In this document: positions 10,297-57,782 of the stretch, piece after piece
How positions within the stretch are numbered: the first letter of the stretch is position 1
How the letters are laid out: every line of letters begins with the position of its first letter
Origin: Amphiscolops sp. MND2022
Taxonomy: Eukaryota
Direction of reading: 5' to 3'
Assembly (NCBI GenBank): GCA_964187785.1
Contig: OZ076409.1
Span: forward strand, 9,178,001 to 9,242,000
Length of the DNA: 64,000 nucleotides
The notes under the pieces: model-generated
The model's database searches: none
Told to the model about the DNA's origin: nothing
Seen by the model: the letters and a program-made list of their open reading frames with translations, nothing else
Translations under genes and position numbers: made by a program

Positions 10297-11760
10297 CGAG
10301 TTTGATGACCTATTCATGAAACGCAAGGCGGATATTGGCCGCTGTACCATTGCTAAACACACCATAGAGGTAGAGCCTGGGGCTGTACCGCACCGTGAAG
10401 GTGCTCGCAGAATGTCCCCCGAAAAGGCTGAACGAACCAACCAGGAGGTTCGGAGCTTATTGGCCTTAGGGATGATACAACCTTCACTGTGCCCATGGGC
10501 AAGTGGTATCGTAATGGTAAAAAAGAAAAGCGGGGAGTTACGTTTTTGCTGTGACTTCCGACCGCTGAATGAAGTAACCATTAAGGATGCCTACCCCCTG
10601 CCCCGCATCGATGAAAGCCTGGCGCGACTGGGCAATGCAAAGATCTACACTAGCATAGATCTTGCCTGGGCTTTCTGGCAAATTCCCTTGCGAAAGGCGG
10701 ACCGCCACAAGACAGCTTTTGCCTCTGAATTGGGACTCTTCGAATGGCGAATAATGCCATTTGGCTTGTGCAATGCATCAGCCACCTTCCAGCGAGCAAT
10801 AGCGCGAGCGCTACAAAAAATAGTCAATCGCAAAGGCAGCACGGTCATGGCATACATCGACGACATAGTTATAGCAACAGAGACTGTGGAAGATCACATG
10901 GCGCGTCTGCGCGAGGTTTTTGAATGCCTCCGCGAGGCTGGCTTCAAGATGCGCGTAGCCAAATGCGACTTCATGAAACCAGAAATCAAATATCTGGGAC
11001 GCGTAGTCTCCGCAGAAGGTGTCAAACCGGACCCGAAGGCTGTTGCCAAACTGCGCGATTGGGACATCACTCGCAACAAAACCGAAATGCAAAGTTTCCT
11101 GGGATTCGCTAATTATTATCGTGAATTTATCCCATGGCATGCCAAGCTGGTTGCGCCCCTCCACGCCGTTACGGGACTGAATGCCACGTTTGCATGGGGT
11201 CCTGACCAACAAAAAGCCTTCAACGAAATCAAGACAGCATTGATCGAGGCGACTGCGCTCGCGCAGCCTGATTCCGAAGGAGAGTTTGTGCTGGACACCG
11301 ATGCCAGCGCCGTTGCCATTTCCGGTATCCTACACCAGTGGCAAGGAGCTCCAGGAGAGCGACGCCTACGACCGATCATATACGGCAAGAAATTGACCAC
11401 CACCCAAGCCAAATATGGGGCACCCAAGCTGGAAATGTTTGCAGCCTACTACTTCATCCTGAAATACCACAGCTACCTTTGCCCCCGAAAGTTCACCCTG
11501 AGAGTCGACAACCAAGCCCTATCCTGGTTGAAAACCTACTCCACGGACCAAGCATTGATTGGACGTTGGATCATGACGCTGGACAGGTATCACTTTCGCG
11601 TGGAACACAGACCGCGAACTCAACACCGCAATGCTGATGGCTTGAGCAAACGAACCAACGATTATCGATGCCGAGAACAGCAGCTTGCGCAGCTGCCAGC
11701 TACTGGAGAGCGTTGGAATTTCCTCTCGGCCGAGGAATTCGACAACCTCCCCATAGCCCC
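10262..11760 (+). pseudogene. pol: Reverse transcriptase and RNase H of element A
   Basis: LRFCCDFRPLN, YPLPRID, MPFGLCNA, YIDD, FVLDTDAS and NADGLS motifs in ORF 10133..11911, with frameshifts at both ends. Confidence 0.97.
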
Positions 11761-14700
11761 TGGTTCGACCTGCAAGGTCGAATCATTCCAAATCATCCTG
11801 ACCTACCACCGCATCTGCAGAAATTGGAGCCTAAGGCTCCTGACCAAGCACTCCGTGTGCTTCGCCGTGTGCAACGAGCGAACAATCGAGAACGACAGGC
11901 GAAGGCGCTAGCCGCACCTCTACCGCCCAAGACTCCACCCGTACTGCAAAAGCACGAGGACTTCTACCCAGACTATCCTGAAGACTGGATAGACGTCACC
12001 ACTGAGGCGAGCGAGGATTACCTGCTGCCAACACATGCAGTAAATGTCCCCTCGCGCACCATCTATTCAGTGACGGGAATGAGTAACGCCATGCTACAGA
12101 ACTCTCCTGGTGGCGTGCGCGAGTCGATCATGGCCCTCAAGGACATCGACACCGAGCTCCATGAACACACTCATACCGTGCATGGGATCAAGGATTTGGT
12201 CCTAGCCCAAAACCGCGATGTCCATGTGCTAGCGCTGAAAAAGCTCGTGCAGTGTGAATCCCTAGATAACGATGTGTTTCCCGAGAACGTGCGTGAGTTC
12301 GCACGTAATTACTTCCGCCAGAAAAAGGACCTCTTGTTCATAAACAAGAATGATGTCCTTTGCGTGCAATACTCCCCCACCCAACGCCCATTGCACGAAC
12401 GTCCGTGCATGATCATAATGCCTCAACTGTACCAGCATGAAATTCTGTTCCGTGCGCACGACGCAATGGGACACCAAGGTATCTCAAAAGTGGTAGCTCG
12501 AATTCAAGAGCGCCACATTTGGCCCGGCATACGGCGCAGCGTCGGTCGATACGTCGGCCAGTGCCTCACCTGCCAACAAGTACGTGACAAGCCTGGTGAC
12601 GTACGATTTCAACTGAAAAACATTCAGAGTGGCTACTTCAACGAGTTGGTCCAGTACGACCACTTAAAAATCTGCCCCTCTGATAATAACAACACCGGCA
12701 TTTTGGTCATCATCGACCATTTCTCTAAATTTGCAGAGGCAGTCCCTTGTAGTCACCACGACTATGACGCAGTAACCACCTCACGATTGCTGCTGCAGAA
12801 TTGTTTTGCCCGCCACGCCACCCCCACTCGCATGCAATCAGACAATGCTCCAAACCTCACCGCTGAAGTCTCCAATGAGTTCCTAAAGGCAGCTCACGTC
12901 ACTAAGGTGACCTCCACTGCCGGACATCCACGAACTCAAGGCTTGGTGGAACGGCAAAACCGCACCCTCTTAACCTTGTTGCGAGTCTTTTGCCCACGTC
13001 GCATGCGCGACTGGGACCAATGCTTAGATGAAGTGATCGGTGCCTATAATTCCACCAGGCACGCCACTACAGGCTTCTCGCCCTACATGTTAACAAGGGG
13101 TGTTGAGAAAGCAATCCCCCTCACCTTTTTGTACCCTGAATTTGCGGCCAAGTCCTTTGATACGCATGAAGCATACGTGGATCATGTGTTGGCTCGCCAA
13201 CAAGAAATTCACGACTTGGTCCGGCGCAATACGCACCAAGCCCAATTACGCCAAAAATTGAAATATGATCGTGCTATCCGAGCACGAGCTTACCAGCCAG
13301 GAGAGCTTGTCTGGGTTTTTTGCCGCTACGTGCCGCAAAAAGGCTCTCCCAAACTGATGCGAGCCTGGCGTGGCCCGCACAAAATAGTACAAGTCTTTCA
13401 AGAAGGACGCGTCTATGTATTGGACACAGGCCAAAAGGTTCATTTTGAGCGCCTGAAACCTCATCATAGTGGGCCCTTTGAGCTCGCCACCGCGCAAGCG
13501 GACAGCGGCGAAATAGTGGTACTCATGGACCCTGACCCTGAACGTTCTATTGAAGTAGTTGACGACGATAAGTCCCAGTCTTCATATAAAACTGAACAAC
13601 TACTTTCAGAAGCATCTGACGTATCCTTGCCTTCGCGCAAGCACCATTGGATGGATACCCGTTTGCGCACAAAGCTACGTGCTGGAGGTTCCCGCATGCA
13701 CTACCAGCAGTTCGACTACTCGATCTCGGGCACTGACGACGAGTTGTCCGAAATCATGTTACCGGTACCTCCTGATCCCGTTGATGCTGATCGTACGGAA
13801 CCCGAACCCCAACCCCCTTCAGACCAATCAATATCACCTACCCATCGTCTACCTCAACTATTCTCAGACCATGAGCGCGCGCGCTCTCCGTCACCACAAA
13901 TATCCTCTCCCGAAAAACAGCCCTCATTATTGGGAACATCGGCCCCACTACTGACAAATCCATCGCTGACGAGTTTCCTCAATAACTATCCCATTTGGCC
14001 GGCCGCTCCGTCCCTTCCTCTGAAATCCGCCACCGACGATGACGACGCTCAGTCCAATGTCCCTACTCTTCCCACGACATTGCCCGGAGCGGGGACCGCT
14101 CCTTCTTTCAAAAGGGGGAGGGGGAGACCACCCAAAACGCGAAAAAGGCTGGTCAGAGCGAAGGCAAGAACGAGGAAGAAAGAAACAACAACAACAATGC
14201 CGTCGGAAACAGCAATACCGACCGAGGCTTCTGAGGTCCCCCGATACCAGCTGAGAAGCAGGCGGCAGCCACGCTACAAGTGCGGGACCTGTGGGCTGCG
14301 AGACTGTGTTTGCTTGCTAGCCGTCAATGAGAACCGGAGGGTTCCCACTGGAGCCCGGGGAGTCCCTCCAGAGCGGGGAGAAAATCTAGTACATCGCCTT
14401 ACGGTGAGAGCTGAAAAGACTTATTCCTCCCTGGAACGACACGGAGACCATCCTGTGGATACTATTCTAGAGAAGTTATCACTGCCTGGAGTAGCGAAAG
14501 CTCCATCTCCTCGATTCAAGGAGTGGACTAGTGACGGAAAAGGGTTAGAGTTTACCCTCGCAACGGTGATGCCCCCAGTACCCAGCAATATTGCGTTTGG
14601 ACCCTTCAACTTCGAGCGGGAGCCTGTGCAAATGGTCCGATGCATCACCGCTGATCTTCTCTGTGACAAACACGGAATTCACGTGGATCCGGGCGGAGTA

Positions 14701-15615
14701 TACAGCCCAGCGCCGCACTGGTGGTTGCTGGTCACTGCTCCACGAGTGGAGGCAATAGTGGAACCACTGCACCTGCTGTCCTGCTTGGAAGGTCTGAGGA
14801 CCCTCACTACCGCGGACTTGATACTTTGCTTCCACATCATAGACTGGTATCGTGGCAAAGTGAAATTCGCGTGGTGGTTGGAACTGATCATCACTTGTTT
14901 CACCAATTATCCTCGCATTAGATTGCTGGACGAGTGGACTCATACTTTCGAGATTCCGCTTCCCCCAAAAGCCGCTTTGAGCACCCTGGATACATGGGTC
15001 AGGGCGAGCAGCGATAATCGAGCGATGCCACGCTCGGTGTGGCAAGACCTGGCTGCAATCCAGGGGCGTACGCCCCGCGTATGCTTGCCTGCCGACAATG
15101 GGCCGGGGAGAGAGATTATCTACCCGAGAATTCTGCATTCAGCCCCAACAGAGCACCTCTCATGTGATGTGACTGATTTTCTTCAAGTAAAAGGTGATAT
15201 GGTGTTAGCGTGTCCCGCTGACCTAGAGACCAACTCAGCCGCCCTACGGTACGTGCTACGAGAATGCGGCAAGGAGAATGTATTCTCCTTACGTCCTAAG
15301 GTGGGAGAGATTCTCACCATTCCTCCCGATATCAACCCAAACCCCAATCAGAGCATTCACTTACTAATAATCAGAGCAAACCAGCGTGCGCCGCTGCTCA
15401 CCGACTACTACCTACGTTGTATGACGCACTTGATACAACGTTTGATAGAGAAAGGATCCACGAGGGTCCACCTACCTATACTGGATCCAGAGCGACCCGC
15501 CCTTTCATTGGTAAACCTGTACCATACCCTAACGAATTTGCTGGAGGGCACTGGCATTCACGTGATGCTGCATAACCGCGTGTATGTGTCCATTCTGAAC
15601 ATAGGGCCGGAGTAG
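11668..15615 (+). CDS. pol: Integrase of element A with a long C-terminal extension (AT-hook, Cys cluster, two macrodomain-like units)
   Basis: HHCC (HDAMGH...CLTC), DDE (QYDH, QSDN, VERQN) and WRGPHKI. KRGRGRPPK lies at about 14110, CGTCGLRDCVC at 14281, and macro-like segments at about 14590-14940 and 15150-15600. Confidence 0.92.
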   Translation: MPRTAACAAASYWRALEFPLGRGIRQPPHSPWFDLQGRIIPNHPDLPPHLQKLEPKAPDQALRVLRRVQRANNRERQAKALAAPLPPKTPPVLQKHEDFYPDYPEDWIDVTTEASEDYLLPTHAVNVPSRTIYSVTGMSNAMLQNSPGGVRESIMALKDIDTELHEHTHTVHGIKDLVLAQNRDVHVLALKKLVQCESLDNDVFPENVREFARNYFRQKKDLLFINKNDVLCVQYSPTQRPLHERPCMIIMPQLYQHEILFRAHDAMGHQGISKVVARIQERHIWPGIRRSVGRYVGQCLTCQQVRDKPGDVRFQLKNIQSGYFNELVQYDHLKICPSDNNNTGILVIIDHFSKFAEAVPCSHHDYDAVTTSRLLLQNCFARHATPTRMQSDNAPNLTAEVSNEFLKAAHVTKVTSTAGHPRTQGLVERQNRTLLTLLRVFCPRRMRDWDQCLDEVIGAYNSTRHATTGFSPYMLTRGVEKAIPLTFLYPEFAAKSFDTHEAYVDHVLARQQEIHDLVRRNTHQAQLRQKLKYDRAIRARAYQPGELVWVFCRYVPQKGSPKLMRAWRGPHKIVQVFQEGRVYVLDTGQKVHFERLKPHHSGPFELATAQADSGEIVVLMDPDPERSIEVVDDDKSQSSYKTEQLLSEASDVSLPSRKHHWMDTRLRTKLRAGGSRMHYQQFDYSISGTDDELSEIMLPVPPDPVDADRTEPEPQPPSDQSISPTHRLPQLFSDHERARSPSPQISSPEKQPSLLGTSAPLLTNPSLTSFLNNYPIWPAAPSLPLKSATDDDDAQSNVPTLPTTLPGAGTAPSFKRGRGRPPKTRKRLVRAKARTRKKETTTTMPSETAIPTEASEVPRYQLRSRRQPRYKCGTCGLRDCVCLLAVNENRRVPTGARGVPPERGENLVHRLTVRAEKTYSSLERHGDHPVDTILEKLSLPGVAKAPSPRFKEWTSDGKGLEFTLATVMPPVPSNIAFGPFNFEREPVQMVRCITADLLCDKHGIHVDPGGVYSPAPHWWLLVTAPRVEAIVEPLHLLSCLEGLRTLTTADLILCFHIIDWYRGKVKFAWWLELIITCFTNYPRIRLLDEWTHTFEIPLPPKAALSTLDTWVRASSDNRAMPRSVWQDLAAIQGRTPRVCLPADNGPGREIIYPRILHSAPTEHLSCDVTDFLQVKGDMVLACPADLETNSAALRYVLRECGKENVFSLRPKVGEILTIPPDINPNPNQSIHLLIIRANQRAPLLTDYYLRCMTHLIQRLIEKGSTRVHLPILDPERPALSLVNLYHTLTNLLEGTGIHVMLHNRVYVSILNIGPE

Positions 15616-15903
15616 CCCGCCCAAAACTCTTTTTTGTTGCCCCCCTCTTTGATTTACCCACCCCGATAATCGTTATGTCTGGGAGGAAGTCTTAAACCAT
15701 CCCATGAAATGATTACCTTGTAACGTAGCGTTAAATAACTCCTATCTTTATGTTCTAGTTAGTTAGTTGAACTACAATTTAAACTTGTTGCGGTTCCCCT
15801 ATGGAACCATCTTTGTACTATTGCAGCTGGATGACGAGCCTTAAGCTCTCCTCACAATGCACCTAGTAAGCCTAACGGTAATCCTTTTTAGACCTATGAT
15901 ATA

Positions 15904-18900
15904 ATGGCTTATTACCCCAACAACACGGTGCCTATTTCCACGACGGGACCTCACGCCAATAGGTCTCAAGAATTGCCTGCGCGAGCGCAGAGGACTAATC
16001 AAGTCCAATATGTAGAAGAACGACTGAGGAACGGCCTCTCACCGTTAGCGGTAGCGGGCGTGGCCGCCCTGCTCGCTCAACTAGACACAATGCAGACGCT
16101 GCCGGGTGTATCTGTGTCTCTGGTGACGGAAGTAGCCGGTTACCGTCGCACGCTAACCTGCCAAAACAATGCGTGGGATGGCCACGATTTGACGCACCAG
16201 TTCTTGGGTGAACGTTCTACCACAATGCTCGGGCCCAGCCAGGGCACGAGATTCGAGCAAGAAGCCTCACTGTGAATGGTGCCTGCCAGCGTAGCAACAA
16301 TGCCACCTCCTCAGATGGTCGCATTGCCCCCACCAGCACCAAAACCAGTACCAATGACGCCAACCTATTCCGGTTCACCTGCCTTTGGAACCTCATATCG
16401 AGCACCACACATGGTACTGCAAACCACTACTAGTGCACCAGTCTCTGATCGGGAGCCCTCGGGGTCCCGGTTGCCACCCATACAAAACCTAGAGCTGACG
16501 GGAAGGAGTACCAGCGAACAGGCCGTAATTGTGGCCTTGCAAGCAGTGGCCAACTATCCCAACTCCTCCGATTTTGTTCGTGCCGTAGAGCAGAGAATCC
16601 CTGGACTAGCCACTTATCTGCAAGCTGCTGTTCGGCCCGCGGGCTGTGACCCTCCTGCTCCCTTAGTCGAGACGGCATCTATGGATGTGGAAATTGCCGC
16701 TGGACCAAGCAACAGCGCAAGCGCTGCTACTGGCGCACGAGAAGAAGCGGGGAGAAAGCGACTAACTGAAGAAACTGTCTCAGTTACCCCAGCTAGCTCA
16801 GTAACCGAGAGCCCGACTAGTCGTCCCCCTCCCGACAAGCGCGCTGATGTACCTCGACCCCAGCTGAAGAGTGTAGTCATCCCTAGGCCTCCGTACCGGG
16901 TGGGTCATCTAGGCCGAAGCGCACCTGAAATGTCTTTAGCGGACGCGATCGAGCAGTATGGAGATCCGGATGCAGGCTCGGAAGTGAGCTCTGTGCCCTC
17001 GGGCACGAATCCAATAGATGTGTCCTTGGAGGTACCTGAGATGTGAGAGGAGAATTGCCCTCCATCTTTCCTCCCTCCCTCTGATGACGTATCCGGTTCA
17101 GTAGTCACCAATGACAGTAAGCGCATTTGGATGGCGGCTGAGCATCTCTACCCCAGTCAATGCGCTATAAAGAAAAGGACCCCTCCAACTGAAACGGAGC
17201 AAAAGGAGATTAACCGAACCACGATACCGGCGCAGGTCACACGTTCGCTGCGCCCCCGGGACGCAGATATGTCGGAGCAGGCCTGGGAACAGCGTGCTCG
17301 AGAGCAGCTGCCTACGACAACTAACGATTACATGGCACCCTTGCAACATAATATCACCGAGCATTTCCCCGCACGGTATGTGTTGCGAGAAGGTGAGACA
17401 TGGGAAGCGAACGCCCGCTACGCTCGCAATTTGAGATCTCTGAAACCACTATTGAAAGCAGCTCTGCAGCGCGCGCGCTACTGCATGGCGGTTGATTCTA
17501 CTTGCCGGAGTGACCTCCCTATTGACAATTTGATGCCTGACGTGCTGGTGCTGACTATGCCCCTGTCTCGCTTTGCTGAGGTCGCCGAGATGGTTGGAGC
17601 CATATACGATCCAAACTTAAGAGGATCACAGAAGGAAGCAACCCCACAGCGCGTGATCTTTGCCAATCTTCTGGATCACATGGCTTGCGAAGGGTTGCTG
17701 CGTGACCTGGACGCCATAATGTCCGATGTCCGACGACTTGGAGACATTGCAGCCCTGGTAAATGAGGTAGTCGGTGCAATGGAACGTGCCGCAGGGATCC
17801 TTCGGGGTCGTCTGGGAGCGCTCGCGCTCTTTGTATCCCCACCAGGATTTATGTATTGGCCACGAAGTCTGCAGCAGTTTGTCTACATTCTGCTGGAGGT
17901 ATGCAAGGCGCGCAGAGTCGAATTCGCCATCTGTGCACCAAACTTGCGTGTGGACCGAGAGGACCTGTGCCCAGATACCTTATCGTATCCAGCCTTCTTT
18001 GCCGCCGTATCTAGAGCACTCGTGGCTATAGAACGCTCGGGAAATGCCCAGCTAACCATTGACGACGCTATCCTCTATGATTATGGAATGCGGATGGGCA
18101 GATTGGCCTCTGACGTTGACGGCAACCGCATCGCCCGAGAGTCTAATGTAACCAAACGAGAGGCTGTTCGTCGGTACAACTGGCTAGTGCAAAAAGACAA
18201 AGAAATCCCAGTGCGCGCAGAGTTAGCCGAACTGACAAAACAAATTGGTGCATGGCCTGCAGCGCGCACCGTTGAGAGAACAATCCCTCAGATCCACTTC
18301 GCCTCAGGAATCGTGCCCGTGAAGCTGCCTGTAGGACTGCGATGCATCGTGGCAATGGAAGCAACAAATCTGAAGGCAGAGGTCGACGCCGCAGCCACCA
18401 TTTACGCCTATTGGTACCAGACTAGGTTTGCCACCAGAACTCTGGCAGAAGTAGCTCGAGAGCTCAATTGTCCATTGGAAGCCTTCTGTACCAGTCTTGG
18501 TCTGGGATGGAACCTTGAAGTGCTAACTTCCGAGTTTTCGCTGACCCCTACGCAAACGGACAAGCTGCTAGAAACAATTGGAGAGGCAACTGTCGGAGAA
18601 ATACTAGCGCTCGCGCTAGCGATGGGTCCAACAAAGTTTGTAGCCGGACCACTGGCCTTGTTGGTCGACATCGTGATTGCCTGCGACCTCACCGTGTTCT
18701 ACAGCTACTTGGTCCTGGCACAAGGACAACTACGCAGCCTGACCCGCTGGGGACACTTGATGACCTCCAAAGACCAACAAGACTATTCCGCTCAACTGGA
18801 GCGCATGCGTGCGTCGATCCAGCACTGGCTATATTCCACCCTGGTGTTCACCTCTGGTGTATTCGTGGGCGTGGACCAATCCCAACCACTACACAACTCA

Positions 18901-20211
18901 GACCAGCAGATCCCACGGGAAACGGCAGGGTTCCCCTTGCCGCAGCAGATTGCTGATCTCACCCTGGCTGAGGTAGAGGATTTCGTGGCAGCCATGGCTC
19001 CTGTCTTGGCCCCTATCTTTGGCGCAGTGGGCGTGTGCCGATACCCTACAAAACCATTAGCAACAGCAGTCCAAGTGCACATGGTCTCCTTTAGCACCTA
19101 TCTGCGAGGCCGTCCCTCACTGGCATATCCAAGGGTAATACATGCCGTGCTGAGTGGTGAAGTGCCGCATGGGTACACGACCATAAAATCCGAAAGAGAG
19201 TTGGAGGAGAACCTGATGGGTTTGTTGCGCGCGCGCACCAGGAAAGCATGTCCTCTGCCCCGAGAGCATGGGCCAGTGAACTGGTACTCCGCACCTCTCA
19301 ATTTGGAACGAGTCCCCTTTAGGTTCCCCTGGAGTCAAGAGTTCATAAGAAAGGCGATTCGCGCCAGCACTAGTGCTGGTCCACCTGTGGACCCTTTATA
19401 CAGCTTTAAATGCATCGCCTTCCCGAATCGCTATTGGAAGGAGCCGTTAGGTTGGCCTAGGGCGAAACCCGTTGGACGCGCCCCAGAGGTTTTCAACCGT
19501 CAAATCCAACACTTGAAGTCAGCCCAGATCCCAGGATGGATTGAAGGCGCTGCTCAGATCAGGCAAAGGAATCTCCAATCCCGCGTTACCCCATTCCCCA
19601 GGAAGTCGGCATGGAAACCTACGGGAAAGATGACCATGTCTGGAGATATATCCATCGTCCAGCATGATGAGATCAATTCCGTGTTGGGCTCAACAGAACG
19701 AGCAAGATGGGAAGAATACTGTCTGGAGTTGGAGATTGCTAGCTTCCCTAAATGGAAGAGAGCTTGCTAGCTCTGGAGCCAACCTGGGTGGATCTCACGC
19801 CGAGTCGCACTAGCAGGAGAAGGTAGAGCAGAGATAGCGAGACAACAGGCGTTCGCGCCTACCATGCTCGCACCAACGATGGCGATGTCTTTGGATCGGC
19901 CCATCTCTCAACCGATCACCATTAAACTTCCAACCCACAACTTGGAGCCAGAACCAGTTGGCCTGTCTTCATCGCGAACGAGCCCTCAGACCTCGCAGCA
20001 GCAGTCCGGAGAGCACGCTCCTGAGTTGACTCCCAATGCAGCACTAGTGCAGCCCATTGCCGAGTTGTCGCTTCCCGAAAGTCTGTCGGACTCCGAAACA
20101 GTTGCCACAGAAGTCTCTCCCCGACGTCGAGCGTCAGTATCGACTGATAACCCAGAACAGAACCAAGATGATGCCACTAAAGAGCGGACCCGACGCAGTT
20201 CGGCTCAATAA
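15904..20211 (+). pseudogene. Accessory ORF2 of element A (about 1,435 codons, three in-frame stops) with an SGNH/GDSL-like domain
   Basis: ORFs 15904, 16276, 17131 and 19864 share one frame and the gaps are open. The TAG at 19768 is GAG in the upstream copy (reads CELW). Confidence 0.85.
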
Positions 20212-20967: not shown

Positions 20968-21696
20968 TGTAACGGCAAGCTCTGGTACAGCAATATCAAC
21001 CGACATGTTTAGAAATTTTGTCAAAAATTCGTTCAAATTTGACGTGGCACTCAAACATGCTCAAGACGAAGTACCTGCCAGAAAAAGCACCCCAGAAAAG
21101 CAGAAATCGCCGCTCGTTACAAACAAGGACCGGAGACGACTAAAAAGACGTCCCCAACGCATACAGAACACGGTATTGTGTCAATCTCTAGGAGATATCC
21201 GTTACTACAGTAAAGGAAACCAGTGTTCCAGTTGTTCGCCTGAGTATCCCTGCGGTATCCTGTGTGGCAACTAGCGCTAGCGCTGGGAAGCTGAGGTCAA
21301 TTTTCATCAAATGACTCTGAACTCTTGATTTCTTGTTGTATTTTTCGATGTGGTAAATTAATATGCTCGAGAGCTGTTGTTTAACATCTGTTTATCCAAT
21401 TTGGCGATTTTATCAGATTCTCCAATATCACGGTTCAACCTTCATCGATTTTCAGCCCAATTTTTAAAGGCTAGTTGAGCAGTGGTCTTGAGTCTTACAA
21501 GATGCCTGTTACTTTTAGCAGTTACAGACTAGGACCAGGCCAGAGAGTATCCTACAAGACGATTCCCCCACCTTGGGACTGGCTCCTCCGGAGGGAAAAT
21601 GAGCTAGAGCCGCGGAGATCTAGGTCCCAGATTATATTCGCTGTTCTAGTTCCTCCACTCTACTTTGCGGTTCAAGCGCCTGCGCTTATCGTTACA
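20968..21696 (+). repeat. 3' LTR of element A
   Basis: 729 bp TGTAACG...CGTTACA, homologous to 2925-3651. Confidence 0.95.
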
Positions 21697-21814
21697 TTAC
21701 AGGGGTGACAAGGGTTCTGAAACCCACAAATCACAATCTCAAAAATAATCATCTGAAATATTCTTCGCCGAACTTTTTTTGCTCTCTTCAAAAATACTCT
21801 TCAACGTCTTAGGC

Positions 21815-22154
21815 GGGTGGGCGGAAATAGGTCGAAGGAACGGGATCGAAAATCAGAGTTAGTCTTCAGGTCGACAATACCAAATTTTTGAATGGGATCG
21901 AAACAACTCGGATCGAAATTTTTTTAACGTAGGCAGATATGTTCACATACCCCTAGTGCCCTGAATGCAGGAGCGAAGCGACGTGCCATATGGCCATGCC
22001 TCAATGTTGCTACTTGGCGAAGGGAGCGAAGCGACCGAGCCATACAACAAATACGATAAAATTCGACCGCATTCCATTCGATCCCTGTAATTCGATCAAA
22101 AGGTTCGACCTCAGTCCTTTCGACCAGAAAAATTCGACCTATTTACAGCCACCC
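21815..22154. mobile_element. MITE with 9-bp TSD (Mutator-like)
   Basis: TIRs GGGTGGGCGGAAATAGGTCGAA / TTCGACCTATTTACAGCCACCC are flanked by GTCTTAGGC on both sides. The element is absent in copy B2 at about 25990. Confidence 0.85.
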
Positions 22155-22189
22155 GTCTTAGGCATTCCAAAAAGTTCCAGACCCGAGAC

Positions 22190-22693
22190 GGCTACGTGGA
22201 ATCAGGTCTAATGAAATAGATCTAAGAGAGGGGGCAAAACTGAGATCTAAATAAATTGATCTAAAAATCAGGTCTAAAAATCTTTTCTAATTTGATCTTA
22301 TTTGAGAAAAAAATTAGTCAATTAGGATCTAAAACTAAAAAGTGATATAAAGTATAAAACGTGCCTCGGATATGTCCCCATTTCCTCTAGTGCCCCGCGG
22401 CCTCTTGGGGCCGCTTATATTCCCATCTTGCTAAGCGAGGTCGAACAGGGGCAAAGACCTAGCGGGAACGGAGATCGCGAAGCGATCGTAGTGGGAGTTG
22501 GTCTTTGCGACGGTGAGGGCGAGCGTGCATACATCGCATATGCCCCACATTACATTTTCGCTTTCAGAACACATATTAGATCATAAAGTGGTTAGACCTG
22601 AGTATTTTAGATAAAATAAGATCTTAAAGTTAGACCTAACAGTTAGATCTAAATCCATTAGACCCAAGCCATTAGATCAAAGGCGTACACTCC
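22190..22693. mobile_element. Second MITE-like insertion with an imperfect 9-bp TSD
   Basis: Flanked by ACCCGAGAC/ACCCGAAAC, with inverted GATCTA/TAGATC-rich arms. Absent in copy B2 at about 26015. Confidence 0.7.
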
Positions 22694-22899
22694 ACCCGAA
22701 ACTACGATCCATACAACAAAAGTTAGTACTTTTGGACTTTATCTAGTGGAATTACTGTAAGTCTCAGAGTCGACTAAAGATTATAGCAAATTTGGTGTTC
22801 ATGTCTTTCTCAAAGGCATTTTAGTTTAAGTCTTACGAAAAGGTAACCAAAAAACAACCACTCAAACTAAACTACTATTGGTAGCGCCACCAATTGTTG

Positions 22900-24535
22900 A
22901 GACCGGCCACAATCAGAAGTCATGAAGTAAGATCAACAGGAAGAAAGGAAAGAGGTAGGGAGATAAATAGAAACACAAAAGCCAGGACCCCAACTCCAGG
23001 AAGATCGCCGGGAAGACAGTGAAAATCTCATACACGAGAGAGGTTTCCAAAAACTGATCGAGAAGTGGGATTCCGAGATGGTTGTTGTCGTATCTGCGGG
23101 CATAGTGGACACTGGGCGAGAGATTGATTGCAAAAACTCTTTCAGGTGTGGTAGTTCAGAGCATTTTAAAAACGATTGTCCGTTTTTAAACCAAGACAGG
23201 CTAAGGTGGAAAAATCTTCACCTTTGCCTAACTGTAACATGGCCATGATGGGAGTAACAGCCAACGAAATAACAGGAAAACTCAAGCTATGTATATGACA
23301 TTCCTCGTCAAGGGAAAATGACGAAGGCACTAGTAGACGGCGGAATTAGCGTCTCATTAATCAGAATCAGTTGGGCTTAAATAAACACACAGGGTTTCAG
23401 TGGAGAAACGGAGAAGTACAATGGAAAAAAATAACAGCAAATAAAACACAGCTATCAGTGGAAGGAAAAGCAGAGCTGATTGTGCAATTAGAAAAGAGTT
23501 CACCCGAGTTTCGGGTTGGTTTTCTGATATCATCAGTGGATATTTTCGATTTCCTTTTGACGCTGGATTTTTTCACAGAATTCGATTGTATTTTGTATAA
23601 CAAACGGAAATATTTTTTACGCGGGAAGAAATCTAAGACCTTGGAATTGAAGTCAAGCTTGCAAAACCTTGGTACCATGTTTTTAATTGTCGGCCCAACA
23701 CAAATTATACCTTCAAGAAGCGAAAAATTGATTCAATGTGAAGTACGGGAGGCATACCAGGAGGCAACAGGGTTATGGGTAGCACAGTCACTGTTGAAAG
23801 ACAGTGAAGGAATTCGTTGGGTACAATTTTTAAATATCCAGGACGAGGATATTCCGGTAACTTGGAAGAAGCGGAACTTTAGCAACAAGTTTTTTCACTT
23901 CAAGCAGGAAAATCAGCTAGAATTTTCACTAAACGTTTCAACTTGGAAAAACGCGTAAACATTAACAGTGTTCATTTGACAAGAGAACAACTGGACGCGG
24001 TAAAAAGTCTGTGCCAAAAGTACGAGAAAAATTTTTCGGAAAACTGGAAAGATTTAGGAATTACCAATCAAATAGAACATCAAATCAAGCTCAAACCAAA
24101 CGCTCAGACGTTTCGTAGAGCGTACGAAAACATGCGTTTTGACAAACGCAAAATCATGAAAAAAATTGTGGAAGGATTAGCGAATGCTGATCTAATAACA
24201 CCACCCCATTCGGACTGGGCAGCACCTAGTATTTTGGTTCCAAAGTAAAACGGAACGTACCGTCTTGTGTTAGGCTACCGTGGACTCAACAAACAAATAG
24301 AGAAGACATGTTGGCCGCTGCCTAGAATCAACGACGTGGATGATTCCCTTGTTGGGAACATATTTTTCTCGAGCATTCACTTGACATCGGGATACTTTCA
24401 ATTGGCTCTGAAAGAGAACAGTCAGAATCTAACCACCTTCATCACGCCTATGGGCCTCTACAAATGGAAGCGGTTACCATGGACTCGCTTCTGTGCCAGG
24501 GGCTTTTCAAAACTTGATGGAGTTGATTTTCAGTG
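22900..24535 (+). pseudogene. Decayed gag (two zinc knuckles), protease and N-terminal RT of element B1
   Basis: CRICGHSGHWARDC and FRCGSSEHFKNDC at about 23086-23180, KALVDGGISVSLI at about 23325, and WAAPSILVPK, YRGLNK and WPLPRIND. Confidence 0.88.
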
Positions 24536-24539
24536 GGAA

Positions 24540-25317
24540 GCAACCCACCCTGGACAATTGTGCAGTAACGTTCGTGAAAAAGAAAGCTAGGAACGTTCTC
24601 GGTTGGCTGGGCTGGAGTAGGTATGCGTAAACCTGGAACCTTTTGCATTCGTTGAAAGTGAGATTAAAAGAAAATATTGCAGCCTGAAACTGGTGTTTTT
24701 CAAATCAATCAAATCAATTTCGCTGAAGAACAATCGATCATAGAGCATCTATTGCCTCCGCACGAAGATGCTGACGTGGAGGCTTTTGGGGTGTTGAAAA
24801 TGCTCCAATCAGTGCCCTTGGCGCTCCAGCGTGAAGTTTTAGATCTGTCTTCTGTTTGGCTGCTCTTTGACGAAGCAGAGAGGAAGTTTCCTTCCCTGGA
24901 TCATGGCGGAAAATACCCAGAAAAGGACGCAGCAATCAAAAAACAGTTCGTTTTGAATGCGGTGTTTCGAAAATTACCCAGAGCAGAGAAAGTGATTTGT
25001 CAGTTGTGGAGAAACTAACCTGAGGAAGACTCTGTAAACGCCCAGATGACGACGAAAACGACTGTTCAGTGCAGTCTGTCAGTGAAGTGTTTGCAACAGC
25101 CATTCTCAAAGAACAATTCGAGAGGGCCTGTGGACAACTGAATTTGGAGCTCCTGAAACCAACAAGCAGGGTATCGGAGAGGTCCTTAAGCTCCGCTGGA
25201 TTTACCATGAATGGGAGAAGACAAAGTTTGACACCTGTTCAAATAGAACAACAGCTTTTCCTCAAAGTGAATAGGAATTACTGGGACATCAGCACCGTGA
25301 TTAATTGTTTTGAATGA
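24540..25317 (+). pseudogene. hAT transposase 3' remnant (C-terminal dimerisation domain)
   Basis: PTSRVSERSLSSAG...RRQSLTP...EQQLFLKVN in ORF 25069..25317. A possible CCCTG TIR end lies at 30910-30914, beyond element B2. Confidence 0.78.
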
Positions 25318-25457
25318 GTGATCATTCGTTCTGAATACTTAACGTGTTGATGATATCCTTATTTTTTGCCAATCTTTGCAATAATTTCTATTTTTGACTG
25401 GTAAAAAACCAGTGATCAAATAATTGCTTGGATTATTTTTTTCAGACCAATTAATTG

Positions 25458-25881
25458 TATAGAAAACCTATATAAGGAAATATTTAAAAAAAGATATAAC
25501 GTCATACGTTCAGACAGATTTACGATGAGAAACAAAATATTGTTATCAGACATATCAAAATAGGGTTGTCGGGGTTCGACAATCTTAGGTAAACCGACTG
25601 TCGGGGTTCGATAGTAAAAACCACTGTAAAGAAGCAACTGTCGAGTGTCGACGGATCGCATTGGGAAAATATAAAGACATTCGGAAAATGGCTGGCTTCG
25701 CCAAACTATGGCAAAGATAAAGGGTTTATAAGCGATATGAGAAGTTGACCATTCGCGTTTTGCCTTTTGTCAATTTCATTGAGCTATATTGACTGAATAC
25801 TATCACAAATTGAAATAAACACGTCTTCAAAACATTAACCTAACTCTTTTTTATCTACGTCTTCATAAAGAGGACGTTACA
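25458..25881 (+). repeat. 5' LTR of B2
   Basis: TATAGAAAACC...GGACGTTACA, homologous to 77-430/1443-1473 and to 30449-30886. Confidence 0.9.
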
Positions 25882-26114
25882 GTGGTGACAAGGGTTCTGA
25901 AACCCACAAACCACAAAATCTCAAAAATCATCATCTGAAATATTCTACGCCGAAATTTTTTTGCTCTCTTCAAAAATACTCTTCAACGTCAGGCATTTCA
26001 AATAGTGCCAGACCCGAGACTACGATCCAGACAACAAAAGTTAGTAATTTTTGGACTCTACGTAGTGGAATTACCGTATGTCTGAGACTCCACTAAAGAT
26101 TATCGAACTCGAGC

Positions 26115-28723
26115 AACAAGTTTTTTTCATTTGAAGAAAAAAAACAGCTGAACGTTTCAACTTCGAAAAGCACGTAAACATTAACAGTGTTCATTTGACA
26201 AAAGAGATCAACTGGAGGCGGTTAACAGTCTCTGCCAAAAGTACGATAAAATGTTTTCAAAAACGCGAATGATTTAGGAATTAACAATCAAACGGAACAT
26301 CAAATCAAGCTCAAACCAAACGCTCAGTCGTTTCGTAGAGCGAATGAAAACATGAGTTTTGACAAACGCAAAACCTTGAAAAAAATTGTCGAAGGATTAC
26401 CGGAAGCTGATCTAATAACACCAACCCATTCGGAGGGACAGAACCTAGTATTTTGGTTCCAAGGAAAGCCGGAACGTACTGACTTGTCGTACACTACCGT
26501 GGACTGAACAAACAAATAGAGAAGACATGTTAGCCGCTGCCTAGAATCAACGACATGATTGATTTCCTTGAAGGGAACATGTTTTTCTCGAGCATTGATT
26601 TGACATCGGGATACTTTCAAATGGCTCTGGAAGAGAACAGTCAGAATCTTACCGCCTTCTTCACGCCTTTGGGTCTCTACAAATGGAAGCGGTTACACAG
26701 AGGCTTTTCAAATCTTGATGGAGCTAATTTTCAGCGGTTTATCATACAAAGTAGCAATTGTTCACGTTGATGATATTATCGTGTTTAGTAAAAACATTGA
26801 AGAGCACCTTGAAGAAAGAATGGAGCATATTATCGAAAGACTGGAGAAACGTGGATAGAAAATCAAAGGATCAAAGTGCAACTTTTTTCAAAAAAAAAGA
26901 ATATGTTTTTTGGGCCACGTCATCTCGGATAAAGGAGTGAGAGTGAACCAAGAGAAAGTCAAAGCAGTAGAGAAAATGAAAGCACCCACCAGTTTAAAGG
27001 AAGTGAGGGCAGTTTTGGGATTAGTACGGTTTTAAAAGAAGTTTATTCCGGGTTTCGGAAAAACTTCAGAACCTCTAAATAACCTTTTCAAAAAAGAGAA
27101 AAAGTTCGTCGGGACCAACGAATGTGAAAGCGCTCTGAAAAAATTGAAATACAAACTATTGAAAGAACTTATCGTGGGTATCCCAACAGCCGACATGATT
27201 TTACGCTAACTACAGACGCCTCTTTGACAGACTTGATGCCATTTTGACACAGAAACGCAACGGGGTGGATGGAGAAATTGCATATGCCACAAAACACTCA
27301 ATTGGAGCCAAAGAAAATACTCAGCAACAAAAAGGAAATTTCTAGCGGTTGTGAAATTCACAAATCATTTCCAAACGTATCAGTTGGGGCGCGAATTTGT
27401 TATTGTAACCGACCATCTGGCTTTGTTTGGTTGTACAGTTTCAAGGAACCTTAAGGTATGATTTCAAGGTGGTTATAGAAATTGGGACAGTTTGACTTCG
27501 AAATAAAACACAACGCAGGAAAAGCCATCCCACTTGCGGACCGTTTATGAAGAGTTTAATCTAAAGGAGAGGAAACAAGAGCTTTTATCGCTGCATTTAC
27601 ATTTGAAGAAAACGTTCAAGAACAACCGAAGACCCCTTGGATGTTACTCCAGGGACAGCAGAAATAATCACAGGAAGCAGCAAGAGGATAAAAATCTGGC
27701 GAAAGTCTTCGCGTGGCTCAAAGATAAACAGCGCCCTGACCGACGGAGCATGTCCTTGGCGTCTAAAGGATTACGGAAGTATTGGGTCGATTTCAAGAAT
27801 TTTGCTGTCATGGATGGAATTATATATCGAAAAAAAGCAGGAAATGTCAGGAACTGCTGTGCTGCAACTAGCAGTTGCTGCGTCTCAGGTTCCACACATT
27901 TTACCATAACTGGACGAGTCTCTGTGTACGAGCCACCTGGGAATCGAGAAATCACAGAGCGCAAGAACAATTATTTAGCCAGGCATGAAAATAGACGTCA
28001 GAGAATGGGATAACAGTTGTAGTGAGTGTCTTAAAAAGAAAGAAAAACCACAATAACATCGCGACAGTCTTACTACATGGCAGGCCAGTCACCCGTTTTG
28101 GCAAGTATCAATGGACGTCATGGGACCTCTTCATGACTCTCAAGGTTGTACATACATTCGCCTAAATGGGGATCAATTCAGAAAGTGATATGAGGCCGTG
28201 GGAATGCCAAACCAAGAAGCCAAAACAGTTGCCGAAGCTCTAGTTGAAAATGGATCACACGTTTTGGGTGCCCTGTCAATCTTCATAGTGATACACCTAA
28301 TGATTCCATATTTAAAACAAAGCGTGAGCTACAGGAGGCATATCATTGGATCAGGATTCAGATGGAAGTAGAACAAACTAGACAGAAGTTCTACTACGAC
28401 TACCGCGCATAATGTACCGAGAAGGACAGCGAGTTCTTGTCTTTTTCTCAACAGTAAAAATGGGAGAAACAAAAAGTTGAGAGCGTTCAACAAAGGACCT
28501 TACGAAAATGTTGAAATTGATAACAGATAGAATCAGATTCAAACAATATAGGTGTAGGGAGCAAACATCTGTCAGAATTAACGAAACTAGGAGACGAAGA
28601 GAGTTGGAGGAAAAATCATTCGTCGAGGAAGTTGGAGATGACTTCATTGAAATTGAAGTCGAGCAAACAAACGAACCGGATAGGGAGGATCATGGACAAC
28701 TTTTCAGAATGAAAACCAGGTGA
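26115..28723 (+). pseudogene. pol: Heavily decayed pol (RT, RNase H, integrase) of B2
   Basis: FSSIDLTSGYFQ, VDDIIVFS (about 26767), FTLTTDAS (about 27200), CSEC, FWQVSMDVMGPL (about 28095), LHSD and KGPYE. Confidence 0.9.
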
Positions 28724-29349
28724 CAGCTGATCCACACAATGACGTTATAACCGTTGAAGAAAAGCCTAACGAGCGACAGTGTAGCGCGTCTTCAGAGAAG
28801 GACGGAAGTAGCAGTAGAGATAACTTCTCGACCGAAACAATTAAACCGAAAAATCAAAACAAAAAATTAAAAACAATCCACCACCTGGCGAAAAAGCAAC
28901 TGTCGCAAAAAGGGTCACCCAGGAGCGCCAAGAGCAGCCGAGGAACATTTTCGAGCTTGAGTTCGACAACAGAGTGCAGCGAGAAAAAATACGGAAAAAT
29001 ACGAGAAAAAAATACGATCCTAGCGCGCCAAAAGATACTGGCGAAGGGTGAGAGAAACAAAGCCAGAGTAACGGAAAAACTTATTAGGAAGCTGAAACAC
29101 AAAAACCTCATCCAACGTCCGTTCACACCCTATGAGATTCTTTCCGCAAAAGATGACGCAGACGTGAATGATATCAAACGTGATTACAAAAAATTAGCTG
29201 ACTTAACTCATCCTGACGCTGATGGATGTGATGAACACTTCAAAACAATCCACAGTGCCTATCTTATTTTGAGTAACCAGAATGCAAGAAACATATACGA
29301 CATATTCAGGTTAGAGGGGGCAGAAAAAAGAGTTAACCCGGAAGGCTAA
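28720..29349 (+). CDS. J-domain (DnaJ/Hsp40-like) protein segment, probably the frameshifted Pol C-terminus
   Basis: TPYEILSAKDDADVNDIKRDYKKLADLTHPDADGCDEHFKTIHSAYLILSNQNARNIYD fits the J-domain pattern, with HPD at 29209-29217. Confidence 0.88.
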   Translation: MTADPHNDVITVEEKPNERQCSASSEKDGSSSRDNFSTETIKPKNQNKKLKTIHHLAKKQLSQKGSPRSAKSSRGTFSSLSSTTECSEKKYGKIREKNTILARQKILAKGERNKARVTEKLIRKLKHKNLIQRPFTPYEILSAKDDADVNDIKRDYKKLADLTHPDADGCDEHFKTIHSAYLILSNQNARNIYDIFRLEGAEKRVNPEG

Positions 29350-29620
29350 TTGGAGCGAATAATTAAAATTAACTGCTAACTTTACAGTTTTTTGTACTTT
29401 TGATTTGTATAAAGAAAAAAATTATAAAAATCCTTTAGACATAATTGTTTAGGTGGGAATCACCTAGAAAGCGGGTATTTAAAGTGTGATCACTCGAAAA
29501 AACGACAAAGTGAGAGTCGCCTGTTGATTGACAGAGTTCGACAAATTCCAGCACTAGCGGGAATACTATACGCACTAGTAATATTACATTTATACGTAAT
29601 TATGGTGCTGATTTTGGTGT

Positions 29621-30330
29621 TTGAGCATGCATTCGTCAGTTGGGGACATCGTCTATTACTTGCCTGAGGTTTTTGTGGTGAAATCTCAAATGCCTTCTGG
29701 AGTGTTCCGGGTGGAAGGACTAGTCAGCAAAACTCGGGAAGTTGCAGCAGCTGACACTCTCTATACAGTGACCCTGGTTAGCACAGCTGAGATTGACGAA
29801 GAAGGACTGTCAGTACTGCGAAACAAAAATGAGGATTTGATGACGGAACGGCATTGTCTTGTTTTTCAGCTGGATGATTTTTTTCAGCTAAGATTCTCAG
29901 TTGGCAGAAGAAAGCAGACATCACTCACGGGCAACTACGTCTCTGGAAAGAAGCAACCAGCCAGCAGCAACATTCCTTGGTTGAGTACAAAGAAACATCG
30001 AAGAAAATGTGGCCACAAGTGGACAGCATTGAGGCTGACAATGCCGCAGCGATAACGGAATCATGGTCTCAAGCAGGAACTGCACTTGAAGCCAGAGAAA
30101 CCTTCAAAATGGGCGACAAGCTAGCGCTGCACTACCAACTTCTGGTGTCGTCCATTGTTTCAGTCGAGGCTATTGCTGAAAGATTTAAAAAACTCAGCCT
30201 GCTCTGCCACCCAGATCATGGAGGCTCCCACAACGTGTTTGTTCGGCTTCAGAGGGCCCACTGAACACTAAGTGACCCCGAGGGAAGACTCCGCTACGAG
30301 GGAGCATCAGAGGAGTTTACCAGTTTTAAA
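29621..30330 (+). pseudogene. Second accessory ORF of B2 with a C-terminal J-domain (frameshift and internal stop)
   Basis: HYQLL...IAERFKKLSLLCHPDHGGSHNVFVRLQRAH*TLSDPEGRLRYE, with HPD at 30208-30216. Confidence 0.82.
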
Positions 30331-30345
30331 AATAACAGCAAAGAC

Positions 30346-30400
30346 TGTTTTTGATGTTTTGCGTGTTTTTGCGTGTTTTTGCGTGTTTTTGATGTTTGTT
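30346..30400. repeat. Short tandem repeat (TTTTTGCGTG)n
   Basis: Three exact decamers plus degenerate flanking units upstream of the PPT. Confidence 0.8.
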
Positions 30401-30448
30401 TGTTTATTTCTTCCAAGCGGCGAATAACTTCTCATTCGCAGGGGGCAA

Positions 30449-30886
30449 TATAGAAAACCTATATAACGAATTTTGGAAAAATTAAAAATGATTAAAGGTG
30501 AAACGTTCAGACCGATTTACGTTGAGAAACAAAATACTGTTAACAGACATATCGGAAAAAGGGTTGTCGCGATTCGACAGTCTTAGGTTAACCGACTGTC
30601 GGGGTTCGACTGTAAGATTTCCATAGTAAAAAAAGCAACTGTCGGGTTTCGACGGATGGCATTGAGAAAATATGAAAACTTTCACAAAACGGCTGGCTTC
30701 GCCAAAGTATGACAAAGATAAAGGGTATATAGGCGATACGAGAAGTTGGCCATTTGCGTTTTGTCTTTTGTCAAGTTCCTTGAGCTATAAATCACATTGA
30801 ATACTTTCTCAAAATAAAAGAAACACATCTTCAAAACATTAAAATAAATCTTTTCATATATACGTTTTCATATAGAGGACGTTACA
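30449..30886 (+). repeat. 3' LTR of B2
   Basis: TATAGAAAACC...GAGGACGTTACA, visibly more diverged from the 5' LTRs than those are from each other. Confidence 0.9.
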
Positions 30887-50800: not shown

Positions 50801-51680
50801 CCGAGGGTTGGATGAGTCCCCTCGTCGCTCTTTCTTGCGCGAGTGTCAGGGATGTTTACTTGAACTTTTGAAGCAGCTCAGTTCCAGTCCTTACGCCCAT
50901 TCGCGGATTGCTCGGTCGTTGAGTTCCTTAAGTGTGGACATGTTGCTGGGCGGGGACGCCGATTACGTCGCAGACTTATTCCAGGATCTTGTAGCCTGTT
51001 TGCAGGAGTCTGGTTGCCTAGATGGTGTGGAGCGTGAGGCCGCATCAAACGAGTTCAAGTCTTTGGTCGTGGAGTTGCGTGGACGTTCTGTGGATTGTTC
51101 CCAAATCGATGATGTATTCAGTTTTTTGGAGTCTCTTGATATCTTCCAGTGCCGGGCTCATGTGAGGCAGGTCGTTCGTCTCGTGCGCGTGATTGTGTGT
51201 CCTGCGCCTCGTCCTCTTCCTCACGTTGAAATATTAACTAGTGGTTGTAGTGTGCCTCTGTCTGTGATCCAGACTGGTTTGAGTGGTGTTCAGTCATTTG
51301 TTATTCAGCCTAAGTTTGTATCAACTGAGCTTTTGACAGTGGAGTGTATTGCAGAATTGAAGAGTAATCTGTTAGTTGGTCATCTGTTCTTGGGTTGCAG
51401 TACCTTCGATCCCTGGGGCGGAATCAGTCGTCATCCATATGAAGATGTCTTCGGAAGTATCTTTCGGTGTTATACTGCTTATTATGCTGGGCAAGTTGAT
51501 GAGTGGAGAGCTCGTATGACAGCCGGCCCGTCTTCTCGAGGAGAGGCCTCTGGAGGTACGTCTGTAGCTGATACTGCGTCTCTTGTTGTAGCTTCTGGAT
51601 CTCAACAGGGCACTACTAGTCCAGCATCCGAGAAGAAGAAAAGGAGTAAGAAGAACGTTCGGCAAGGAAAGTCGTGTTGA
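47850..51680 (+). CDS. Spliced antisense cargo gene of element C: BED-finger, hAT-transposase-derived protein (about 1,114 aa reconstructed; one 23-nt frameshifting insertion)
   Basis: Exons 47850-48168, 48252-48479, 48584-48811, 48933-49061 and 49217-51680 are joined by four GT-AG phase-1 introns and keep an open frame. CAVC...RHFKCKGH and SKTET...SPFSLAL motifs are present. Confidence 0.8.
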
Positions 51681-57780: not shown

Positions 57781-57782
57781 AT

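Follow-up and report, generated by a model that had tools for sequence, protein, structure and literature searches.

Two J-domains as probable ends of paired accessory genes in an envelope-bearing Ty3/gypsy element of Amphiscolops sp.

Two J-domain sequences lie in a long terminal repeat (LTR) retroelement copy, called B2, within a 64,000-nucleotide stretch of the genome of Amphiscolops sp. MND2022 (GenBank assembly GCA_964187785.1, contig OZ076409.1, positions 9,178,001 to 9,242,000, forward strand; this whole stretch is called the window, and coordinates refer to it unless a contig is named). Both match the Pfam family PF00226 (DnaJ), for which the curated gathering cut-off is 27.8 bits: the upstream sequence, J1, at E 1.7e-14 and 54.1 bits over profile positions 2-63 of 63 in the stop-free frame 28684-29349, and the downstream sequence, J2, at E 4e-9 and 36.9 bits in the translation of 29878-30330, where an in-frame TGA was set to X. 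The HPD codons are found at 29209-29217 in J1 and at 30208-30216 in J2. An initial annotation of this DNA, made from the letters alone, had already reported two J-domains with the HPD motif at these places, and we confirm both as genuine J-domains. In Pfam scans of the J proteins DnaJ was the only family found; the G/F, zinc-finger and DnaJ C-terminal domains were not detected. On the anatomy and evolution set out below, we consider it quite probable that each domain forms the C-terminus of an accessory protein encoded by one of two paralogous genes, J1 and J2, which an envelope-bearing, endogenous-retrovirus-like Ty3/gypsy element carries.

The design of this element was read from open reading frame (ORF) maps of seven fuller copies in the genome. 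It measures ~10.5 kb from LTR to LTR and comprises, in this order, an LTR, gag with zinc knuckles, a pol gene with protease (PR), reverse transcriptase (RT), RNase H (RH) and integrase (IN), env, J1, a spacer of ~300 nt, J2, a polypurine tract (PPT) and an LTR. The Pfam domains of a fuller copy follow each other as zf-CCHC, RVP_2, RVT_1, RT_RNaseH, Integrase_H2C2 with rve, and Integrase_p58_C, which is the Ty3/gypsy order, and with its flanking LTRs and a gag-pol in the order PR-RT-RH-IN the element has the organisation of a Ty3/gypsy LTR retroelement. The set of families itself (RT_RNaseH and Integrase_H2C2 present, no match to the BEL-type Peptidase_A17 or DUF1759) points the same way, although as a criterion it is only suggestive. 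J1 begins with its own ATG, separate from pol, and encodes 243 aa from the first ATG in the copies related most closely to B2 (lineage 1) and 234 aa in a second lineage (lineage 2; loci L045-L049, whose J1 is 55-58% identical to that of lineage 1); the J2 ORF has ~250-270 aa.

Between the pol stop and J1 lies a gene that the initial annotation had overlooked. The ORF set in this position matches PF24664 (Monjiviricetes_fusion, a viral fusion glycoprotein family) at E 1.4e-15, and so do two full-length relatives, one of 668 aa (E 1e-15) and one of 703 aa (E 4e-17); in the sequences of both, a hydrophobic leader at the N-terminus and a membrane anchor at the C-terminus were read by eye. The element is thus envelope-bearing, env having been deleted in the window copy, and the predicted product of the ORF 3' of pol, a viral fusion glycoprotein, makes it errantivirus-like. 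To judge from its sequence, the protein is a type I membrane fusion glycoprotein of the Monjiviricetes (chuvirus-like) kind. A homologue search for longer relatives of env found nothing, and a sequence search of the PDB gave only a chance-level match (E 0.25); a class III, gB-like fold is suggested by the Pfam family together with a statement in the accessible part of the text of PMC13524379.

Aligned with the seven fuller copies, B2 (25458-30886, 5.4 kb) proves to be a heavily deleted derivative from which four internal blocks are gone: ~2.3 kb of gag-protease with its junction at 26097/26105, 0.2-0.3 kb at 28293, ~2.4 kb at 28895/28922 comprising the whole of env and the 5' ~40% of J1, and a net 66 nt at 30056/30065 within J2. 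A DNA search of the 1.07 Gb assembly with the segment 28720-30330 gave 55 matches at 74-86% identity, and in most of the genome copies the positions 179 and 203 of this probe are 2.3-3.0 kb apart. The initial annotation had separated the first J-domain from the integrase tail by only a frameshift and had proposed to look for an intact Pol-J fusion in a consensus of other copies; what is found in the fuller copies instead is a pol stop, an env of ~670-700 aa and J1 as a separate ORF. Compared with intact copies, the 221-codon frame 28684-29349 is a mosaic of the pol tail, an out-of-frame stretch and the 3' part of J1, and pol and J1 appear joined in it because of the deletion of env and the front of J1 plus two frameshifts. 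A public predicted protein of 209 aa (P0006) corresponds exactly to this chimeric frame of the window, i.e. a deletion-derived remnant has been annotated as a J-domain protein. J2 carries three defects in B2, namely a frameshift in a T-run near 29876-29885, the net 66-nt deletion and an in-frame TGA at 30262-30264, and the description of the window copy as decayed is borne out.

The two LTRs of B2 are 82.5% identical (59 mismatches and 8 gap openings in 440 columns), so that B2 is either old or has LTRs from different parents. No matching target-site duplication was found around B2 (5' flank TTAAT, 3' flank TATTG), in keeping with a B1-LTR-B2 arrangement, either tandem or recombinant. Upstream lies B1, a second copy of the same family. 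Its LTR occupies 75-432, and pieces of its leader, gag and RT are found at 21694-24537; some 21 kb of nested elements appear to separate the two parts. For the 920 nt from the end of the RT remnant of B1 to the LTR at 25458 (24537-25457), no match was found either to the full element or to a Pfam family.

The linkage of env, J1, J2 and LTR was followed through the whole genome. A search with the J1 protein yielded at least 151 J-type matches, which fall into lineages at 100, 90, 55-58, 40 and ~30-35% identity. Of 37 distinct J1 loci with E <= 1e-40, all but the window copy (36 loci) have an env match immediately before them on the same strand; J1 follows the env match at a distance of 11-480 nt at 35 of the 37 loci and at 1466 nt at one further locus, which belongs to a tandem array. 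In the reverse direction, a J match was found within 1.5 kb after env at 48 of 57 env loci, and the other nine are partial env matches. When a probe made of the J2 tail and the LTR was used, 42 rows were obtained, of which 23 covered both parts together (query from position 1-2) and 19 only the LTR part. This is roughly the 1:1 ratio to be expected of a family in which J2 stands before each 3' LTR. The J segment is present in all seven fuller lineage-1 copies and at all five lineage-2 loci, and the order env, J1, J2, LTR is constant even where env identity is down to 33-50% and J identity to 35-58%. These data show that J1 and J2 belong to the element family and are not private to one copy.

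Tandem arrays of the 3' part of the element (env tail, J1, J2 and LTR) were observed at C3:59886694-59908000, C1:1175297-1184025 and C4:81991113-82004237, with a period of ~2.9-3.2 kb on C3 and C1 and of ~4.7 kb on C4; two J1 ORFs in the C3 array are 100% identical to the query. The three arrays look like products of unequal recombination rather than new insertions.

Outside this genome, an exhaustive profile-free search returned 53 representatives at E <= 1e-10. Five of them (P0011, P0013, P0017, P0020 and P0035) are intact proteins from other public assemblies with the same three-part layout at 29-40% identity, and all five pass PF00226. The largest contig listed has 10,100 bases for the env relative P0183 as well as for the J relatives P0003 and P0035, and 9,213 bases for the env relative P0188 as well as for the J relative cluster P0017; the equal sizes suggest that these env and J relatives share contigs and that the same linkage exists in more distant lineages.

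The architecture of the J1 protein was addressed with an AlphaFold2 model based on an alignment of 12 sequences (mean predicted local distance difference test score, pLDDT, 80.4). In the model, an N-terminal module of four short strands (residues 18-51, pLDDT ~69-78) is followed by a single helix of ~95 residues (68-162, pLDDT 82-97) and by a C-terminal helical domain (167-241 of 243, pLDDT ~87-93). The latter superimposes on the J-domain of Sis1 (6d6x; Foldseek, TM-score 0.78 on the target, root mean square deviation (rmsd) 2.3) and on ERdj5 (VIA-align, Z 10.1, rmsd 1.7, 69 residues aligned), and J1 is accordingly modeled with the four-helix J-domain fold. J2 aligns to J1 along the whole length, from the module to the J-domain. 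The conserved module starts within ~10 residues of the start codon, which leaves no room for a signal peptide in J1 or J2. We take this layout to be that of a specialised class C J-protein. The N-terminal module gave little to compare it with: none of eight pieces matched a Pfam family at E up to 10, an Atlas search with residues 10-66 returned no usable match, and the module folded alone reached a pLDDT of 49, too poor for use as a search query. With the whole J1 protein the Atlas search returned just unnamed clusters (scores 0.78-0.80), and in a wide structural search with the whole model J-domain and coiled-coil rows filled the list, so that residues 1-62 were not thereby probed. A predicted J1-J2 complex stayed below the mark of 0.34 (scores 0.07 and 0.06), which counts neither way.

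J1 and J2 align over their full length (25% identity, E 6e-19), and in a tree of 12 sequences, midpoint-rooted for drawing only, they form two clades with 100/99 support, so that the duplication predates the lineages. Intact J ORFs are kept in lineages that are just 35-58% identical. In lineage 2, J1 is open in all five copies and J2 in two of the five; intact second ORFs, which the initial annotation had proposed to look for in a consensus of other copies, do exist. The eight intact proteins of the J1 and J2 types that were scanned all pass PF00226 (E 5e-13 to 1e-16, 49-61 bits, profile 2-63 of 63). HPD is kept in all nine J1-type sequences of alignment A3, and in the five J2-type sequences of alignment A4 the H and the D are invariant, one decayed copy reading HSD; the loop varies across the family as HPDAGG, HPDVNG and HPDQGG. 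Invariant columns in the J1-type alignment number 9 in the N-terminal module, 19 in the linker and J-domain and 1 in the long helix, so that, as judged from these sequences, conservation is highest in two parts of the protein, one of them being the J-domain. Between lineages 1 and 2 the nonsynonymous difference is 0.28-0.29 for J1 and 0.42 for J2, against synonymous differences of 0.88-0.90 (saturated) and 0.77, respectively, which indicates that amino-acid change in the J genes has been held well below the neutral rate between lineages. The proposal that the two very divergent domains had long been resident in the family is thus supported.

The features of B2 are listed in Table 1.

Table 1. 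Features of the window copy B2.
Feature	Position	Strand	Remarks
5' LTR	25458-25881	+	starts with TG, ends with CA, followed by TGG... primer-binding-like site
RT, RNase H and integrase remnant	26105-28293	+	80-84% identical to pol in 5 of 7 fetched copies; gag-PR block absent
Integrase C-terminal region and pol tail remnant	28293-28895	+	matching ORF in a fuller copy is Integrase_p58_C
Deletion junction	28895-28922		other copies hold 2.3-3.0 kb here; in copy A from 7884 to 10323
J1 remnant	28922-29349	+	partial long helix (out of frame to ~29030) and J-domain 29128-29301; stop 29347-29349
J1-J2 spacer	29350-29626	+	AT-rich, 36% GC over 29290-29690; carries TATTTAAA at 29476 beside a purine run
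J2 remnant	29627-30354	+	ATG 29627, conserved N-terminal module, helix region, J-domain 30133-30300
Polypurine-tract-like run	30440-30448	+	immediately 5' of the 3' LTR
3' LTR	30449-30886	+	pairs with 25458-25881

The initial annotation had placed the second J-domain in its own ORF behind an AT-rich spacer with a TATA-like box. The ORF and the spacer were recovered, the former in the fuller copies, and the box turned out to be private to the window copy: at the column of TATTTAAA all nine other lineage-1 copies differ, eight of them reading TAATTAAA or TAACTAAA, and none of the three lineage-2 copies has a motif of the TATTTAAA type. An internal TATA promoter for J2 was rejected on account of this lack of conservation. 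What is conserved in the lineage-1 spacer is a purine run followed by TAATTAAAGTGTG, located at ~29462-29490 in the window and found also at L002, L005, L010, L014, L031, L033, L035, L039 and L043, and absent from lineage 2. This pair resembles the PPT and the LTR start at the 3' end of the element and may be either an additional, central PPT or what is left of a former LTR boundary.

Other elements occupy further parts of the window. The region 6319-19770 (plus strand) contains another retroelement, GC-rich (52-56%) and with long open frames: an ORF of 1325 aa (11638-15615) has Integrase_H2C2 and rve near its N-terminus and ~890 more residues without a Pfam match, and after it come two more ORFs (256 aa and 907 aa, 16276-19770), the larger of which again lacks a Pfam match. 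The unmatched frames are possibly novel accessory genes. An ORF of 792 aa at 49302-51680 (plus strand), without a Pfam match, adjoins an apparently well-preserved LTR-type element at 52016-59312 (minus strand) with gag, protease, RT, RNase H and integrase in ORFs of 509, 402, 1002 and 505 aa.

Several observations weigh against reading J1 and J2 as working genes of the family. None of the seven fetched lineage-1 copies has all its ORFs open, and these copies were retrieved with the J segment as probe and form a biased set, for which the J2-tail/LTR probe and the env-to-J survey are the less biased checks; the genome counts are lower bounds, only the best candidates having been scored. HPD is lost in some copies (HAD in J1 of L049, HSD in J2 of L047 and NPD in J2 of L049), and J2 of L033 falls under the Pfam cut-off (E 0.085) owing to an insertion. 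Synonymous sites are saturated between the lineages, so that no finite ratio of nonsynonymous to synonymous change (dN/dS) is obtained, and within lineages dN/dS amounts to 0.42-1.07 (lineage 2, 10 pairs) and 0.62 (one lineage-1 pair). Such near-neutral values are as expected for dead copies decaying from a constrained master and are on their own not evidence for selection. A sequencing-run lookup listed no RNA run for a lineage-2 locus.

The effect of a J-domain on Hsp70 depends on the HPD loop. J-domains stimulate the ATPase of Hsp70, as is stated in the accessible part of a study of viral J-domains (10.1101/2022.02.15.480533), and recruitment of Hsp70 by J1 and J2 is plausible. In the mechanism that we propose, the two proteins would be located in the cytosol or nucleus, the N-terminal module would hold a viral or host client, and the HPD loop would trigger ATP hydrolysis by host Hsp70 on the client thus held, with J1 and J2 possibly acting as coiled-coil dimers. 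Our preferred client, which is a guess, would be the element's own Gag or particle during assembly or uncoating. Direct folding of the Env ectodomain in the lumen of the endoplasmic reticulum is unlikely in view of the missing signal peptide, while a contact with the cytoplasmic tail of Env is possible.

The main rival to a role in assembly or uncoating, which we nevertheless hold to be unlikely, is that J1 and J2 are real element genes aimed at the host, where they would draw off Hsp70, compete for it or imitate J-proteins of host silencing or restriction and thereby serve defence evasion, comparable to the polyomavirus T-antigen J-domain that remodels host complexes. A targeting module combined with a dimerising helix and a J-domain would fit any adaptor role, and nothing in the present data separates a host-directed function from one in assembly or uncoating. 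In Arabidopsis, the J-domain protein SILENZIO of the host acts together with Hsp70 in transposon silencing according to the accessible part of PMC8616336, which demonstrates that J-proteins and Hsp70 may serve the host's side in a conflict of this kind; this example, however, comes from plants.

That the domains are J-like in shape and devoid of co-chaperone activity, the proteins acting through the N-terminal module and the coiled coil, e.g. in a structural or matrix-like way, is a distinctly improbable alternative. The individual copies with HAD, HSD or NPD would be in line with it, but the retention of HPD in every J1-type sequence aligned, the scores of the intact proteins on PF00226 and the rank of the J-domain among the two most conserved parts argue against a loss of activity.

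We regard as very improbable that a Pol-J1 fusion with the J-domain as the integrase C-terminus, together with a TATA-driven second ORF, is the ancestral state: the window does offer one stop-free frame from the pol tail to the J-domain of J1, a gene caller made P0006 of it and TATTTAAA is present, but the frame spans the junction of a ~2.4 kb deletion, the fuller copies have env and a J1 ORF with its own ATG at this place, and the octamer is absent from the column in every other copy compared. Least credible of all is a one-off event, in which pieces of host DNAJ genes, or foreign DNA inserted by nesting, reached just this copy or a young subfamily and have no role for the element. Although J-domains are outside the canonical gypsy gene set and the closest resemblance beyond the family is to ordinary cellular DnaJ proteins (40-54% identity, ~65 residues), the segment occurs in constant order in all fuller copies and lineage-2 loci, with open ORFs, nonsynonymous change far below synonymous change and deep divergence of both env and J. 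A missing DnaJ match, family members devoid of the segment or a private nested insertion, any of which the initial annotation had named as speaking against its proposal, were accordingly not what we found. The matches to ordinary cellular DnaJ proteins mean that the J-domain is ultimately of cellular type, and its acquisition must once have been a capture, albeit an ancient one; a donor gene could not be named, the phmmer matches beyond the family being generic DnaJ J-domains.

A wider form of the reading of J1 and J2 as resident genes of an envelope-bearing element is offered tentatively, and we give it somewhat less than an even chance: an old env-bearing gypsy clade would have kept two dedicated Hsp70 co-chaperone genes throughout its diversification, these would be the first J-proteins of a reverse-transcribing element, and the paralogues would form a coiled-coil adaptor that brings Hsp70 to the capsid, the pre-integration complex or a host restriction complex. 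The same J-protein solution may have arisen independently in other animals. A 'J domain-containing protein' of 498 aa from Macrostomum lignano (P0058, UniRef100_A0A1I8G7E4) has a C-terminal fragment of a gypsy-type integrase between two identical J-domains, which share 30% identity with those of J1/J2 and are unrelated to them in detail; this gene model may reflect either a separate instance of a J-domain beside a retroelement pol gene or an annotation artefact across tandem copies.

The J-domain of the polyomavirus T antigens is N-terminal, fused to a replication/transformation protein, and reads HPDKGG. J1 and J2 resemble it in being virus-encoded HPD J-domains presumed to use host Hsp70, whereas the modeled J-domain of J1 is C-terminal (167-241 of 243) in a small stand-alone protein on a retroelement; they do not belong to the T-antigen type of J-domain and at most may work like one. 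Cellular class C (type III) J-proteins such as auxilin have a C-terminal J-domain, lack the G/F, zinc-finger and DnaJ C-terminal domains, and owe their specificity to other modules. J1 and J2 have the same layout as the auxilin-type proteins and no detectable homology to them outside the J-domain. As for elements with additional genes, LTR elements of bdelloid rotifers are reported to have captured extra ORFs between pol/env and the 3' LTR, which their lineages have kept (Rodriguez and co-workers, in 2017) and which are reportedly not J-proteins. T antigens are the classical viral example of a J-domain, and J-domains have also been described in the polyproteins of 11 families of positive-strand RNA viruses (Kitrinoviricota and Pisuviricota), where they were suggested to help polyproteins to fold and be processed or virions to assemble, as far as the accessible part of that work goes (10.1101/2022.02.15.480533). 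The likeness to the RNA viruses lies in the repeated capture of J-domains by viruses; the difference is that J1 and J2 are separate, duplicated genes in a reverse-transcribing element.

Envelope-carrying Ty3/gypsy elements ('errantiviruses') are known across metazoans with env genes of the F type and of the herpesvirus-gB type, and a Chuviridae-like, gB-like glycoprotein has been seen beside gypsy pol genes (Chary and Hayashi, eLife 2026, PMC13524379, in its accessible part). From what this part describes, the present element shares with them the LTRs, gag, the pol order PR-RT-RH-IN and an env 3' of pol, and differs from them by the two J-protein genes after env; the same part of the text contains no mention of DnaJ, J-domain, Hsp70 or accessory, and it states that other ORF arrangements were not searched. 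A retroelement-encoded J-protein was not described in the literature that we searched, most subscription journals being outside this search. The element therefore appears to be of a known type with a previously undescribed pair of accessory genes.

Retroviruses and retrotransposons depend on host chaperones and, to our knowledge, are thought to borrow them without encoding a recruiting factor. If our assignment is true, J1 and J2 would be a new class among the few accessory genes listed for invertebrate endogenous retroviruses and would extend the recurrent capture of J-domains by viruses, seen in polyomaviruses and many RNA viruses, to reverse-transcribing elements. For annotators, the deletion chimera P0006 is a warning that 'DnaJ-like' gene models in such genomes can be transposon genes. 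Chaperone hijacking would become a heritable, element-encoded step in retroelement replication, and self-encoded, duplicated and conserved J-proteins would provide a natural, genetically tractable handle on the question of which step in the life cycle needs Hsp70.

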